Counted from the first letter of the stretch, positions 10,840 to 22,839 are shown. The stretch: DNA of 64,000 nt from a virus (IMGVR_UViG_3300036784_000120:63790-127789); one strand, 5' to 3'. Notes: generated from the letters alone by a model not told the origin. Numbers and translations: made by a program.

Positions 10840-11162
10840 TGTGCGGCCCCCGGTGTCCCATGCACCGCTGCCGTCCACGCCGTGATCACGGCCGTCACGA
10901 ACCGGGGATCCTGGCTCATCAGCCCGTCCAGGTCGGCAGGCACCGGATGACCGTCGTCGTCCTCCACGTTCCACGACTCCAGGGCGTAGCCGAGCGTCGC
11001 GGTCATATGGCGGAACGCCGCCAGGTCACCGGAGGCGACCGCAGCAGCAGTGTCGAGCATCACCGACATGGGCACCGGCCGGACCGTGATCTCCAGCCCT
11101 TCATACTCGGTGCCGGTGAAGTCCAGCTTGAACGGGGCGCGTTTCGGCCGGAAACCTGTCAC
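10836..11162 (-). CDS. Tail assembly chaperone-like protein
   Basis: FKLDFTGTEYEGLEITVR...ALESWNVEDDDGHPVPADLDGLMSQD resembles actinophage chaperones. Confidence 0.6.
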   Translation of the reverse strand: MTGFRPKRAPFKLDFTGTEYEGLEITVRPVPMSVMLDTAAAVASGDLAAFRHMTATLGYALESWNVEDDDGHPVPADLDGLMSQDPRFVTAVITAWTAAVHGTPGAAQ

Positions 11163-12768
11163 TGTGCCGCTCCCGGTAGTCCGCCTGCTGCGGGCGGGTT
11201 CTGCGGTGGCCGCGGCGGGCCCGCGGCGGCGGGACGCATCTGCGGTGCCGACGGCGGCCGTGGCCCCTGCTGCCCGCCGCCGGCCCTGGCGGCGGCCTGC
11301 TGCGTGATCGCCGTGCCCGCCTGCGCGAGTCCCTGCAGCTGGCCGAGCCCCGCCGCGGCCTCCGGCGGCATGCCAGGCGGCGGATTGCCAGCTAGCTGTT
11401 CGGCACGTTGCGAAGCGGTAGACACCAGCGCGTCATGCACCTGGTCCACGTCCAGCTGCAGAATCGACGCCATCCGTTCGGTGATCAGGTCAAACACCTG
11501 CAGCGGCACGTGCAGCACCGGCGCCGCCGACATCTGCCCGAACATCGTCAGCAACTGCTGCGCCTGCTCATCCTGAAGCGGACCGAACTTCGCCTGCGGA
11601 TACGATGCGCCGGTACCGAAGTTGAGCATCACCAGCGGCCGGATCACGTCGTAGGAGATGGATTCGGCGATTTCCTTCGCCACACCCTGACGCGACTTCA
11701 GGTAGAAGTCGGACTGGTCCTGCGACAGGCTGTAGGCGCCCTTCCCGCCGGTTGACGCGGACGCGAGGCCGAGGAACCCGGCCAGCACACTGCTGATCGC
11801 CCACGACGACAGGAACGACAGCGCCTGGGAGAAGAACAGGCCCGCATCCGCGGACGACGGGATCGCCTCGAACGCCTTCTGCCCGTCGATCGGGTGCACC
11901 AGCCCGACGACACCGGAGCCGCGGAGCTGGGAAATGTCGTCGGCGCGGGCGGTGGCTTCCGGCTGGTCGTTGCCGTAGACGACAAGCCGCTGCAACGCCA
12001 TGTTCTCCAGGTAGTAGTACCAGAGATACAGCAGCTTCATCTGGGTCGAATGGCACCAGTACGCCACCTCAACCTCGGACACGCCCGTCAGCGGCTCCCG
12101 GTGCTTCCCGTGGGTGTAAATGTAGGAGCGGATCTTCGGGATATCCACATACCCCGGCACCTTCTGCCGCCTGGACAGCATCAGGTTCCCGCCGAACAGC
12201 CACACCTGCTGCCGGAACCCGTTCGCCTCCCCCGACCTGTCGTTATACCGGGCCTGGCACGTGGCAGGCGGGCGGAACGCGATCTTGTCGTAAACGATCT
12301 TCCCGTCCGACTCGCGGACCTTGAACGTCTTCTCGAAAAACGCCCGCCGGTACAGCTGACCCGACGTGATCTGGCCGAGCAGCTCCGTCATCGGCGTCCG
12401 CATGCCGCCCTCAGTGTCCGGCGTCATCAGCACGCTGCGGATGAAGTCGCATTCGCCTTTGTCGCCCTTGCCGGGCTCAATCGAGAAGTCGGCTTCGCGG
12501 ATCGGGAGGGTCAGCACCAGCTCGAGGGCCTGCGCGGTGCCGTTGCGGGAGAACATGGTCTTCAGGTCACGAGACGACCATTCGCCATATTCTTAAATCG
12601 AAGACATCACCCTCGCCGTAGTAGGCGAACAGCCGCTGACCGTAGTCAAACGAGGTCTAAAGTCCCGATCTCAGGACCCATCAGGGTCCGCTTGCCGCCC
12701 GGGCCGCGGGAGCCCTTGGGGGGGAGATCGGGGAAGGCGATCACGTTAGCGTCTTTACCGGATGCCAT
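11159..12768 (-). CDS. Portal protein (DUF935/Mu gp29-like), ~531 aa, with two 7-nt coding gaps near the N-terminus
   Basis: Body ORF 11159..12556 (SVLAGFLGL...GAYSLSQDQSDFY...IRPLVMLNFG). The N-terminus from ATG 12768 joins in frame when 12654-12660 and 12590-12596 are skipped: ...PEIGT/SFDYGQRLFAYYGEGDVFD/YGEWSSRDLKTMFSRNG. Confidence 0.82.
12590..12599 (-). other. Candidate UUA bypass site, portal #2: GAT TTA A GAA
   Basis: In-frame TTA; skipping 7 nt restores the frame; reading through reaches TGA after 9 codons counting the TTA. Confidence 0.7.
12654..12663 (-). other. Candidate UUA bypass site, portal #1: ACT TTA G ACC
   Basis: Synonymous Thr take-off and landing codons; reading through gives TTA GAC CTC GTT TGA. 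Confidence 0.75.
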
Positions 12769-19376: not shown

Positions 19377-19802
19377 ATGCCGTATGCCGATCCAGAGAAG
19401 CACAGAAAATGGCAGCGTGAGTGGATGGCTCGGCGGCGTGCCGAGTGGATAGCTGCGCACGGCCCTTGCGTGGACTGCCGCACTTGGGACGATCTACAGG
19501 TAGACCATGTTGACGCCTCGACAAAGGTCACTCACCGGGTCTGGTCCTGGGCCAAAGAGAGGCGCGAGGAGGAGCTGGCTAAGTGCACCGTCCGGTGTGC
19601 CCCGTGTCACGAAGCGAAGACGACAGCCAGCCGCGAGGATCCCCGCGGCGAGCAGCACTGGGCCGCGAAGCTGAAAGACGACCAGATACCGGACATCCGC
19701 GCCTCACAGCTTTCGATTTCACACCTGGCTAGGGTTTACGGCGTCAGCCGGAAGGCTATCCGCAATGTGCGCCAGGGAAAGACCTGGCTTCACGTCGCTT
19801 AG
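19377..19802 (+). CDS. HNH endonuclease with C-terminal HTH
   Basis: CVDC...LQVDHVD...CAPCH; RGEQHWAAKL...YGVSRKAIRNVRQGKTW; TAAACT 7 nt before ATG. Confidence 0.88.
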   Translation: MPYADPEKHRKWQREWMARRRAEWIAAHGPCVDCRTWDDLQVDHVDASTKVTHRVWSWAKERREEELAKCTVRCAPCHEAKTTASREDPRGEQHWAAKLKDDQIPDIRASQLSISHLARVYGVSRKAIRNVRQGKTWLHVA

Positions 19803-19805
19803 TCC

Positions 19806-21498
19806 CTATCGCCACGACTTGACGTTGCCCCGGCCGCGGTCCGGTTGCGCCTGGTCATCGTCGTCTGGCGAAAAGCCGTCCAGGTCCCACGGGGCCGCAT
19901 CCATGTTCTGCTGCGCCTTCTCCATGATTTCCCGCATCCTGCGATGCCCGCGTGCTTCCTCCCCGATGCCCATGTCCGCGAGGTTCTGCGCGCCTGCCCA
20001 CTTCCGTACGGCACCCGGCCCGTACTCGCCGAGGTGCGGCACGAACGCCTGCACCACGGCGTCGCCGTCGTCGGTGGACCGGCCGAGCCGCTCCCGGATG
20101 TCGTCTTTGCCTTCCACCTGGATCCGGCCGCTTGACGTGACATCCCACTGCGGTGTCGACAGGTCACCGAGCAGCATCTCGTCGTCCGGCAGGCAGATGT
20201 CCGGGCGGGCCGACGGGTCCAGGGCCTGCCGCAGCGTCCACCACGCTTCACTCCTGCGGTTGGCGAACCCGAACTCGCGGGTGGAGTCTTTCGCCTTCGA
20301 CCCGCGGGACGCGTTGAACGCCAGCACCCTGGCGTGCTGCTCGCGGAGCCGGTCGACGACACCCGCGCCGATACCGATCACGTCAACCACGGCGGTGCGG
20401 GAATCGTCAGCGGACAGGATCGCGTTCACCCGCCCCGTGGTTTTCATCGTGTCTTCCCGCACGAACCGGCGCAGCTCCGTGATCACGGGCCCGTTACGGA
20501 TCGCGAGGACAGTGCGGTCCTCACCGGTCCTGGCCACGTCCACCCCGACGGTGCGGGGCCTGCCCAGGTCCGGCTTGCCCGCAGCCTCCCACTCATGCCA
20601 GCGGGCCACCGCCGCCTCAGCCCACGCCAGCGGGATAACCGAATCCTCGTCGCCGGCGTGGAACTCGCCGAGCACCCGGTTCACGTAGATCGCTGACGTT
20701 TCACCCCACTGGCGGAGCCGCTGCGCCGCCCAGTCCCTGGTGACCCGCCCCGCCGTGATCGCGTCGTCGAGGGTGACATGGACCGGATACCAGTCCTCGT
20801 ACCCCTGCCGGCGTGACTGAATGTCGTAGAACCGGCCCTGCGGTGCCCCCGGCGTCGACAGTGCCAGCGCGAACGCTTCCCTCGTGCCGTCCCCGGCGCC
20901 GGAGAACGCGCCTTCGCACGCGTCGAACGTGCCCGCCGGGATCGCCTTGCTCTCGTCGTAGACGAACAGCAGCGAATCGGCGTGCGCGCCTTCGATCAGC
21001 GCCGCGTTAGCTGACGCGCCGGCGAACGCATGCCCGTAACTGAGCCGCAAGTTCAGGTTCTGCAGCTCCGCCCGGGTGAACGGGTGGCCGTCACGGACCC
21101 TCCCCCATTTGATCCGGCCGGCCCACTTGTGGATTTCCGGCCACAGGTACTGGGTCAGCTGATGCCATGACCCGGCGGTCGTCGCGACCTTCCAGTCCAC
21201 GCCGGCGGCGTCCCGGGTCAACGCAAACCACAGCACCGTCACCGCCGCGATGGTGCTTTTGCCCAGTCCTTAATCCATGGGGGCCGCGGACCGCTTCGCG
21301 TTTCCGCTGCGGCAGGCCCCCAATGATTTCCTCCTGGTATCCGGTCAGCCCCTCGCCGCGCCAGTCGATGCAGTCCGCGGCGAAGCCGAGCGGGTCATCG
21401 TAGTAGCGGGCGACGCCCTGCTTGATTTTCGCTGCGCGCCGCTGCAGTTCCAGCAGGTAGCGCAGCCGGTCAGCCGGCGCCTGTATCTGCGGGGTCAT
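19806..21498 (-). CDS. terL: Terminase large subunit (~561 aa) with a 7-nt coding gap in Walker A
   Basis: Two track ORFs join to VRGPHG/LGKSTIAA when 21267-21273 is skipped; Walker B FVYDES, LSTP, nuclease VGVDVARTGEDRTV, RSTDDGDA. Confidence 0.92.
21267..21276 (-). other. Candidate UUA bypass site, terminase: GGA TTA A GGA
   Basis: Identical take-off and landing codons around an in-frame TTA; skipping 7 nt restores GxxGxGKS. Confidence 0.82.
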
Positions 21499-22066
21499 TA
21501 TCGGCCAGCTGCGATTCCAGTTCGGTGATCCGCGACTCGATCATGTCGGCGGTGATCACCTCGACACGGGACTTGGCGGGCGCGTCGTACCCGAAGATCC
21601 TCGCCCGCCGCTCGAGCAGGCTGCGGATCGTCGCTATCGCGGCCAGCTTCGGGCCGTCGTCGAACACGTCCTCGAACACGGGGATCGTCTTGCCGGTCAG
21701 CGGGTCGAGACGCTCAATACCGTCAGCGTCGCGTTCCACGCCGACGAAACGGCGGACGACCCGGCCGTTGGCGTGCGCCAGGTGCGGTGTGAGCATCACC
21801 TGCCACGCCTGCTCGATCAGCCGGTCGAGGCGCTCAAGGTCAGCCTGCCGCGCCGCCCCGGCCTTCTCGGTCGCCATGTCGGCGTAGGCGCGCGTGACGG
21901 CATTGCATGCGGCGCCCTTCGACGCGAAGCCGAGCTCGTCAGCGATCCGCTGATAGGACCAGCCCTGCCCGTGCAGCTCGGCGGCGTGGTAGTCGCGTCT
22001 GCGGGTGCTGTCGGTGCGGGTGTAGCGGCCGCCGCCGCCGCGTCCCGGCGGGGTTTTCGCGGTCAT
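21470..22066 (-). CDS. Terminase small subunit (HTH-type)
   Basis: GWSYQRIADELGF...LERLDRL...LERRARIFGYDAPAK; directly upstream of terL. Confidence 0.8.
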   Translation of the reverse strand: MTAKTPPGRGGGGRYTRTDSTRRRDYHAAELHGQGWSYQRIADELGFASKGAACNAVTRAYADMATEKAGAARQADLERLDRLIEQAWQVMLTPHLAHANGRVVRRFVGVERDADGIERLDPLTGKTIPVFEDVFDDGPKLAAIATIRSLLERRARIFGYDAPAKSRVEVITADMIESRITELESQLADNDPADTGAG

Positions 22067-22479: not shown

Positions 22480-22839
22480 TCAACCGTCCCCTCGCCGCTC
22501 TCGCTCGCGCAGCTCCACGGCAGCCCGCTCGCTGGCCCCGGCCTGCTGCGCCCGGTAGATGAGCCAGGTCCGCCAGGTCAGCACGATAGGGATCAGCGTG
22601 ACCGCCGCCACCGCGACCCACTCCAGCGCGAGGCCAGGCTGGATGCCGAACTCGTAGTGCAGGGTGGTGGCCAGCAGGGCGGCGGCGATCAGCTCGGTCT
22701 TGAGGACCATGTTCCAGCCCCACTCGTCCCGGTACCAGGGCCAGAACGTGCGGACCACCAGCGGCCAGGACAGGCACACCCAGAAGGCGATGCCCGATGC
22801 CCAGACCACCCAGTCATGAAGGAACTGCATCTGCGTCAT
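22480..22839 (-). CDS. Membrane protein, possible holin
   Basis: FWPWYRDEWGWNMVL; three hydrophobic segments. Confidence 0.7.
   Translation of the reverse strand: MTQMQFLHDWVVWASGIAFWVCLSWPLVVRTFWPWYRDEWGWNMVLKTELIAAALLATTLHYEFGIQPGLALEWVAVAAVTLIPIVLTWRTWLIYRAQQAGASERAAVELRERERRGDG

Follow-up and report, generated by a model that had tools for sequence, protein, structure and literature searches.

Putative UUA-triggered translational bypassing within the Walker A motif of a large terminase gene from an uncultured high-GC phage

The stretch of DNA analyzed here (the window) comprised 64,000 nucleotides (nt), positions 63790-127789 of IMGVR_UViG_3300036784_000120, a 127,789-nt virus contig from a metagenome that represents an uncultured 128-kb phage of high GC content. 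Positions are those of the window unless given as genome or locus positions. The minus strand carries a gene for the terminase large subunit that is interrupted within the Walker A motif by 7 extra nt, the first codon of which is TTA. At the site the minus strand reads GCG GTC CGC GGC CCC CAT GGA TTA A GGA CTG GGC AAA AGC ACC. When positions 21273-21267 were skipped the translation became AVRGPHG|LGKST, in residue-for-residue agreement with uninterrupted homologues. We consider it likely that the gene is expressed by UUA-triggered translational bypassing from GGA to GGA, which would yield a terminase of 561 amino acids (aa). The parts of the gene are as follows.

21274..21498, minus strand: 5' segment of the terminase large subunit gene, 75 codons ending ...AVRGPHG; aligns to the N-termini of the terminase of phage TurkishDelight and of intact IMG/VR relatives.
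21274..21276, minus strand: putative take-off codon GGA, the conserved Gly of GPHG.
21271..21273, minus strand: in-frame TTA (UUA), proposed slow A-site trigger codon.
21267..21273, minus strand: skipped TTA-A-GGA, made up of a 4-nt coding gap and the landing GGA (21267-21269), which is proposed to be re-paired and left undecoded.
19806..21266, minus strand: 3' segment of the terminase large subunit gene, resuming at CTG 21266-21264 (LGKST...), with its stop at 19806.

Translation from ATG 21498 gives an open reading frame (ORF) of 135 aa that contains ...AVRGPHGLRTGQK... and ends at the stop at 21091. Downstream, the frame D*GLGKSTIAAVTVLWFALTRDAAGVDWKV... extends to 19806; the earliest start codon in it is GTG 21242, which lies beyond GK[ST] and opens a 478-aa ORF. 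A first-pass annotation of the window had held that VRGPHG|LGKST forms only if 21267-21273 is skipped, that the unskipped frame gives a 135-aa product, that the downstream ORF by itself lacks Walker A, and that internal re-initiation could not produce a working motor. ORF translation and the collinearity of the joined protein with its homologues bore out each of these points. A split terminase, in which the 135-aa N-terminal piece would assemble with a re-initiated C-terminal piece, was also considered, since split enzymes exist and GTG 21242 does open a long ORF. We find this scarcely credible: the break falls inside the P-loop, the Gly-rich half is fused to 60 out-of-frame residues, and GK[ST], lying upstream of GTG 21242, is found on neither chain.

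Searches against PHROG matched the downstream part to phrog_2 (terminase large subunit) with an E value of 5e-25, and the read-through protein to the same family at 2.3e-26 over residues 50-524, covering the ATPase and nuclease parts with the Walker A pattern G-x4-GK[ST]. A Pfam search with both halves and with the read-through protein returned no family, so the Terminase_6 assignment suggested by the first-pass annotation was replaced by phrog_2. The downstream part was 56% identical to the terminase of Streptomyces phage TurkishDelight, with the same identity across the junction, and 53% identical to Pas60 of Actinoplanes phage phiAsp2; the large-terminase nuclease domain of PDB 8dkr matched the 3' segment (E 5e-7). 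The TurkishDelight terminase is uninterrupted (AVRGPHGLGKTAQAAITVLWFATTREAAGIDWKV), as is RGPHGLGK[ST] in about 60 other relatives, and the gene in the window therefore contains exactly 7 extra nt. A read-through translation in which TTAA was dropped and the second GGA was translated aligned to TurkishDelight from residue 24 to 484. The single extra Gly contributed by the landing codon sat in an alignment gap; the landing codon thus corresponds to no residue, and the expected product is 561 aa.

In the proposed mechanism the ribosome would read the terminase mRNA up to the Gly codon GGA (21276-21274), at which point UUA would enter the A site. The cognate transfer RNA (tRNA) may be scarce or non-functional in high-GC actinomycete hosts, and the A site would for that reason stay empty. 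The peptidyl-tRNA-Gly would release GGA, the mRNA would slide by 7 nt, and pairing would be restored at the second GGA (21269-21267). Decoding would restart at CUG and give a 561-aa large terminase with the canonical Walker A sequence GPHGLGKS. A stable hairpin located 5' of the take-off codon probably refolds behind the ribosome and pushes the mRNA forward. Two further hops would be needed in the portal gene of the same phage.

The IMG/VR database was scanned for relatives, and 80 related terminase loci were obtained, mostly with an uninterrupted RGPHGLGK[ST]. A gap at the same codon was present in five independent contigs from other samples, the flanks of which differed at synonymous sites. 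These alleles, designated by locus, read as follows.

L003: CAT GGA TTA A GGA CTG.
L004: ...GGA TTA A GGA CTA.
L006: CAC GGA TTA A GGA CTA.
L019: CAT GGA TTA G CGA CTG.
L010: CAC GGA, 8 nt (TTAAAAAA), GGA CTC; an 11-nt skip of opposite phase.

An in-frame TTA begins the insert in 6/6 terminase gap alleles, including that of the window. The phase change is +2 in L010 and +1 in the others, and in all six the canonical GPHGLGKS is obtained only by a jump from GGA to the triplet that precedes CTN. The alleles with an 11-nt skip and with a CGA landing triplet thus bear out the skip proposed in the first-pass annotation. As a separate observation, the 8-nt gap of L010 (TTAAAAAA; L010:2985-3004) creates a -1 slippery heptamer, A_AAA_AAG, in the zero frame, and a -1 shift would restore the frame there too, at the cost of four added P-loop residues.

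The ratio of nonsynonymous to synonymous substitution rates (dN/dS) among the six gap alleles was 0.1-0.6 over 76 codons before the gap and 0.16-0.28 over 400 codons after it, at a synonymous rate (dS) of about 0.6. Since dN/dS is low on either side, both halves are under purifying selection and evidently translated, which supports the GGA to GGA skip, triggered at TTA, that the first-pass annotation had proposed. These values bear on the possibility of a real inactivating frameshift mutation, or of a sequencing or assembly artefact, in which case no functional terminase would be made from this copy. A lone 7-nt insert that truncates an essential gene resembles a pseudogene, and the source of the phage is a metagenomic contig. 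The gap nevertheless recurs at the same codon in five further independent assemblies, the flanks of which have diverged; at a dS of about 0.6, dN/dS stays far below 1 before and after the gap; and the 127.8-kb contig has an end that repeats its start. Recurrence with diverged flanks, taken with purifying selection, excludes an assembly artefact and a decaying gene, and we give this explanation very little credence. The motif itself was not retained as evidence. The bare pattern NN.TTA.NN was observed 36 times in the genome where 39 were expected, and TTAA likewise occurs at chance frequency; significance derives from the comparison of homologues and from the recurrence of the same rule at other sites, and not from the string alone.

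A programmed +1 frameshift at or after UUA was weighed against the hop. Here GGA UUA would be read, one base skipped, and translation continued at GGA CUG, with two extra residues in the product (GPHG-LG-LGKS). Insertion of 7 nt changes the phase by +1, such shifts are known to be stimulated by hungry codons, and for the published cases the authors of PMC10732093 stated that +1 frameshifting could not be excluded by sequence alone. At the present site, however, the P-site GGA cannot re-pair with GAU, and two added residues would disrupt the spacing G-x4-GK[ST], from which none of about 60 relatives departs. Moreover, L010 requires the other phase for its 11-nt skip, and L019 would gain Leu-Arg.

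The portal gene of the same phage supplied further evidence on this choice.

11159..12768, minus strand: portal gene (Mu-type) in three frames, consisting of ATG 12768 to site 1, a 20-codon middle piece and the main body; Pfam Portal_Mu, E 1.6e-24; defined by frameshift-aware alignment to the intact portal gene of L096.
12654..12663, minus strand: portal site 1, ACT TTA G ACC, putative take-off ACT and landing ACC with 7 nt skipped; intact kin read GGC ACC CAG/TCG TTC GAC.
12590..12599, minus strand: portal site 2, GAT TTA A GAA, putative take-off GAT (the conserved Asp) and landing GAA with 7 nt skipped; intact kin read GTC TTC GAC TAC GGC GAG TGG.

Both portal sites had been proposed in the first-pass annotation and proved to be real, since intact relatives read ...GGC ACC CAG TTC GAC TGG ... 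GTC TTC GAC TAC GGC GAG TGG. The 20-codon middle piece has no start codon, which also argues against production of the packaging proteins as split chains.

Inserts were then surveyed in 69 portal and 83 terminase loci by comparison with intact references, using a frameshift-aware dynamic programme and requiring well-aligned flanks. The survey, with 151 related loci of the two genes, yielded 51 distinct frame-breaking inserts of 1-19 nt, in three phases, at the terminase P-loop and at least eight portal positions. Portal genes carried one to three gaps each in varied combinations, two being present in the window phage. An in-frame TTA started 43 of the 51 inserts and an in-frame TGA four; of the remaining four, two contain TTA but are complex. 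The TTA/TGA rule holds for 47 of the 51 distinct inserts and both packaging genes bear the same type of insert, which speaks further against inactivating mutation. Three variants, 9 and 15 nt long, preserve the frame but contain TAA or TAG, for example TTC|TTAGAACGCTAA|TTC and ACC|TTATAA|ACC, and therefore no frameshift can rescue them. The landing triplet was compared with the take-off codon for 47 inserts, with two controls; the number of inserts is given for each count of matching positions.

Landing triplet versus take-off codon (47): 3/3, 14; 2/3, 30; 1/3, 3; 0/3, 0.
Control, resume codon versus take-off codon (47): 3/3, 0; 2/3, 6; 1/3, 24; 0/3, 17.
Control, shifted triplets versus take-off codon (84): 3/3, 0; 2/3, 3; 1/3, 34; 0/3, 47.

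Agreement at two or more positions was thus found in 44/47 cases, compared with 6/47 and 3/84 in the controls. Where the pair is unequal, the take-off codon encodes the conserved residue and the landing triplet another residue or a stop; examples are TAT>TAG and TAA, TTC>GTC/CTC/ATC, GGC>AGC/TGC and GAT>GAA. This pattern of mismatches is predicted by re-pairing of a retained peptidyl-tRNA and by nothing else. A +1 shift leaves the 44/47 agreement without a reason, and it is at odds with portal inserts that occur in three phases, are in frame with stops, or, when 4 nt long, place TAG in the +1 A site. Read in this way, the portal series settles the choice in favor of a putative hop, and we regard programmed +1 frameshifting as very unlikely.

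A further explanation is that the extra bases are removed before translation, either by excision or editing of the RNA or by programmed deletion of DNA in replicating or packaged genomes. Against this, the final sense codon is always followed at once by a TTA or TGA in the zero frame, and the last skipped triplet matches the take-off codon. This dependence on the reading frame points to the ribosome and not to a nuclease or ligase. Inserts of 4-15 nt have no common boundary motif other than TTA, the inserts are kept in the assembled DNA of many independent samples, and we know of no machinery that cuts out such short pieces. We hold removal to be highly improbable and retain bypassing as the preferred explanation.

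Some portal loci showed more complicated arrangements. Complex TTA-containing inserts to which no single simple hop fits were seen in L087 and L089-L091 (reference position 66-68) and in L115; their sequences include CGT GAT TTA ATTTAGGC TAT and CGT GAG TTACCCCCCTTTACCC GAC. These inserts may need two consecutive events, or the second TTA may be decoded. The portal genes of L144-L148 contain a large intein around reference position 237-300, and in L145 and L147 TTA-containing oddities (CTTTTCCTTTTACGCC, CTATCTTTTAGACAG) occur just after it.

RNA structure was predicted immediately upstream of the terminase gap.

21278..21322, minus strand: stem-loop with outer helix GGGGGCC/GGCCCCC and inner helix CCGC.../...GCGG, ending 1 nt (A 21277) before the take-off codon; putative bypass stimulator.

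The window hairpin had a minimum free energy of -34.4 kcal/mol and a z score of -3.0. It was found in 6/6 gap alleles at -32 to -37.5 kcal/mol, as compared with -15 to -29 in intact kin. Over the 21 codons before the take-off codon, median dS was 0.23 for pairs of gap alleles and 1.06-1.26 for other pairs; other segments of the gene showed no such difference between the classes of pairs. The hairpin probably helps the bypass.

TTA is rare in the phage, at 0.4 per 1000 codons in confident ORFs of the genome. In 141 terminase and portal gene copies only about 13 TTA codons were found outside the gaps among 72,540 codons (about 0.2 per 1000). A genome-wide search for tRNA genes in the phage found none. 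The closest genome matches were a Streptosporangiaceae contig from a metagenome-assembled genome (MAG) and Streptomyces prophages, and the host is probably an actinomycete. Those terminase relatives in bacterial genomes for which the P-loop region was read (Streptomyces prophages and MAG contigs) were intact at that motif, one MAG having a possible 1-nt defect. Bypassing would probably serve to tie the low-copy packaging proteins to the UUA-decoding state of the host, as a growth-phase sensor of the kind proposed for phage phiHau3. A genome-wide scan for more sites based on GC content at third codon positions was set aside, as it was confounded by antisense frames. With stricter ORF criteria, in-frame TTA codons were located outside the window at genome positions 22028/22073/22214, 28380 and 33156, none demonstrable as a bypass site. 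The three at 22028, 22073 and 22214 (plus strand) form a cluster spanning less than 190 nt close to the end of a long ORF that has repeats of the PVPDRPAVGCCVTAVV type, and they may be sense codons or additional recoding sites.

Several points weigh against bypassing. The support is comparative: for a phage known from a metagenomic contig, the hop and how efficient it would be, the part played by the hairpin, the identity of the host and the regulatory function are all inferred. Slow decoding of UUA is itself taken from codon usage and Streptomyces biology. Short hops at hungry codons in E. coli are inefficient, at about 1-10%, and little product would be expected after three successive hops. 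The consensus hairpin fold of the gap alleles showed no covariation, because its pairs are invariant, and the low dS at the hairpin could come in part from recent recombinational spread of the segment. At both portal sites of the window nothing comparable was found in RNA structure (z near 0), so the hairpin is not a general requirement. Finally, the hop rule does not cleanly resolve two of the portal sites in relatives, which are complex and lie at reference positions 66-68.

A maximum-likelihood tree was built from 29 close terminases. The six gap alleles were scattered on it, and its well-supported branches require at least three changes. L010 was sister to the intact L011, and L006 to the intact L059; within these pairs nucleotide identity was 85-98% along the gene and 71-78% only around the gap. 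Distant gap alleles, by contrast, were most alike precisely around the gap. This mosaic identity suggests that the hairpin and gap act as a recombining cassette. In L013, L014, L015, L018 and L052 the Walker A loop instead harbors an intein (..THN|S following GLGK), about 30-40 nt upstream of the WFALT motif. The intein and the bypass gap occur together in no allele, and the P-loop DNA thus appears to be a hot spot for inserts of both kinds.

On this basis a broader idea may be put forward tentatively. The hairpin and UUA gap might together form a small recombining "bypass cassette" that is spreading in a large uncultured clade of soil actinophages and has repeatedly entered those motifs of low-copy packaging genes that are best conserved, namely the P-loop of the terminase and the GDVFDYGEW region of the portal. 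There it might act as a UUA-decoding (bldA-like) sensor that gates virion assembly and as a shield against invasion by inteins or homing endonucleases. If so, the approximately 50 natural variants would constitute the first comparative rule book for short-range hops, with the rules that two of three paired positions suffice for landing, that gaps of 1-12 nt work, and that UGA can replace UUA.

The surroundings of the terminase gene were examined as well.

21470..22066, minus strand: upstream helix-turn-helix (HTH) protein, probably the small terminase subunit, its 3' end overlapping the terminase start; same position as HTH gene 1 of TurkishDelight.
22480..22839, minus strand: holin-like small membrane protein (weak Phage_holin_2 match), just upstream of the terminase module.
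19377..19802, plus strand: 141-aa ORF abutting the 3' end of the terminase gene, with an HNH-like motif (DHVD...CAPCH) and a C-terminal HTH (weak Pfam HTH_psq).

No homologue of the HNH-like ORF was found in 82 related terminase loci or 68 related portal loci, and the ORF therefore looks like a free-standing mobile endonuclease gene. A link between the gap and this neighboring gene was rejected, since the gene is present only in the window phage. The last 100 nt of the contig (window 63900-64000) repeat genome positions 47-146, an overlap that points to an assembly which is circular or terminally redundant. A long perfect inverted repeat (GCACGGATCCGCAGCGAACCCGGCGGC ... complement) lies within the first 90 nt of the genome.

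For Streptomyces phage phiHau3, UUA-mediated bypassing in the terminase gene was put forward in 2013 (Smith et al., as cited in PMC10732093), and the first experimental support was reported in 2023 (Antonov et al., RNA Biol; PMC10732093). In the latter study phiHau3 has two 10-nt inserts and the StrepC.1 and S. catenulae prophages have 7-nt inserts, 3/100 terminase genes being affected; full-length product was seen in Streptomyces, and the junction peptide was detected by mass spectrometry in E. coli with UAA substituted for UUA (PMC10732093). The phiHau3 sites were read directly as GGC|TTACTCC|GGT and TCT|TTAACGG|TCC. As in the present phage, a short frame-breaking insert with an in-frame UUA at its 5' end lies in an essential packaging gene, and the take-off and landing codons are synonymous or identical (GGC>GGT and TCT>TCC in phiHau3, GGA>GGA here). 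The skip proposed in the first-pass annotation thus has the same geometry as a published case (PMC10732093). A 5' stem-loop was proposed as a stimulator in phiHau3 as well, and in our reading its first site, KGWG|KD, also falls in the Gly-rich loop just before the P-loop lysine. The 7-nt skip is that of StrepC.1 and the S. catenulae prophage, and the phiHau3 gap TTAACGG is found verbatim in portal alleles of the present clade.

The phiHau3 terminase belongs to phrog_9, that of the window to phrog_2, and the two have no BLASTP similarity; the window terminase is therefore an independent occurrence. The portal gene is interrupted here too, twice in the window phage and up to three times in relatives. 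The present clade has 1-12 nt gaps, gaps that keep the frame but contain stops, UGA instead of UUA, and 2/3 landing matches, features that are not seen at the four published sites. The present phage is known from its sequence.

T4 gene 60 likewise uses GGA for both take-off and landing, with retention of the peptidyl-tRNA while the mRNA slides, as is proposed here; current models include a 5' stem-loop, and the insert of the present phage may be cassette-like and mobile. The gap is 4 nt here and 47-50 nt in gene 60, and the putative trigger is the rare sense codon UUA instead of the stop codon UAG. The hairpin described here lies wholly 5' of the take-off codon, with no take-off hairpin that contains this codon, and no conserved homing-endonuclease partner was found, the HNH-like ORF being absent from relatives. 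The "byp" elements in mitochondrial genes of the yeast Magnusiomyces capitatus are 27-55 nt long and lie in a mitochondrial genome, whereas the present inserts are 4-15 nt long, occur in phage packaging genes and would be triggered by UUA or UGA. The byps, which are cited in PMC10732093, resemble them in the many short inserts per genome and gene, the matching take-off and landing triplets and the patchy distribution among relatives. Hops at hungry or stop codons in E. coli reporters (Weiss, Gesteland, Atkins; Gallant and Lindsley; refs 47-52 as cited in PMC10732093) share with the mechanism proposed here an unfilled A site at a slowly decoded codon, followed by a short forward hop to a matching codon a few nucleotides further on. 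They are low-level laboratory events, unlike the inserts described here, which are fixed by selection in essential genes and accompanied by an allele-specific hairpin.

Programmed translational bypassing is among the rarest modes of gene reading, and the evidence for its UUA-triggered form has until now consisted of four published sites, all in a single terminase family and with limited support from experiments. Portal cases and large allele series of UUA bypass did not turn up in a search of the literature. Since gene callers will annotate such essential genes as broken, genome completeness and prophage "decay" in high-GC actinophages may be misjudged. The terminase P-loop site adds to a known but very sparsely documented kind of UUA bypass. 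To the published systems it adds an independent origin in an unrelated terminase family, again at the P-loop, six natural alleles that tell hop and frameshift apart, a 5' hairpin that is specific to gap alleles and shows reduced synonymous change, and about 45 portal variants that reveal the needs of the landing codon. The allele series is of chief value, and together these features open the mechanism, and the growth-phase sensing proposed for it, to direct testing.

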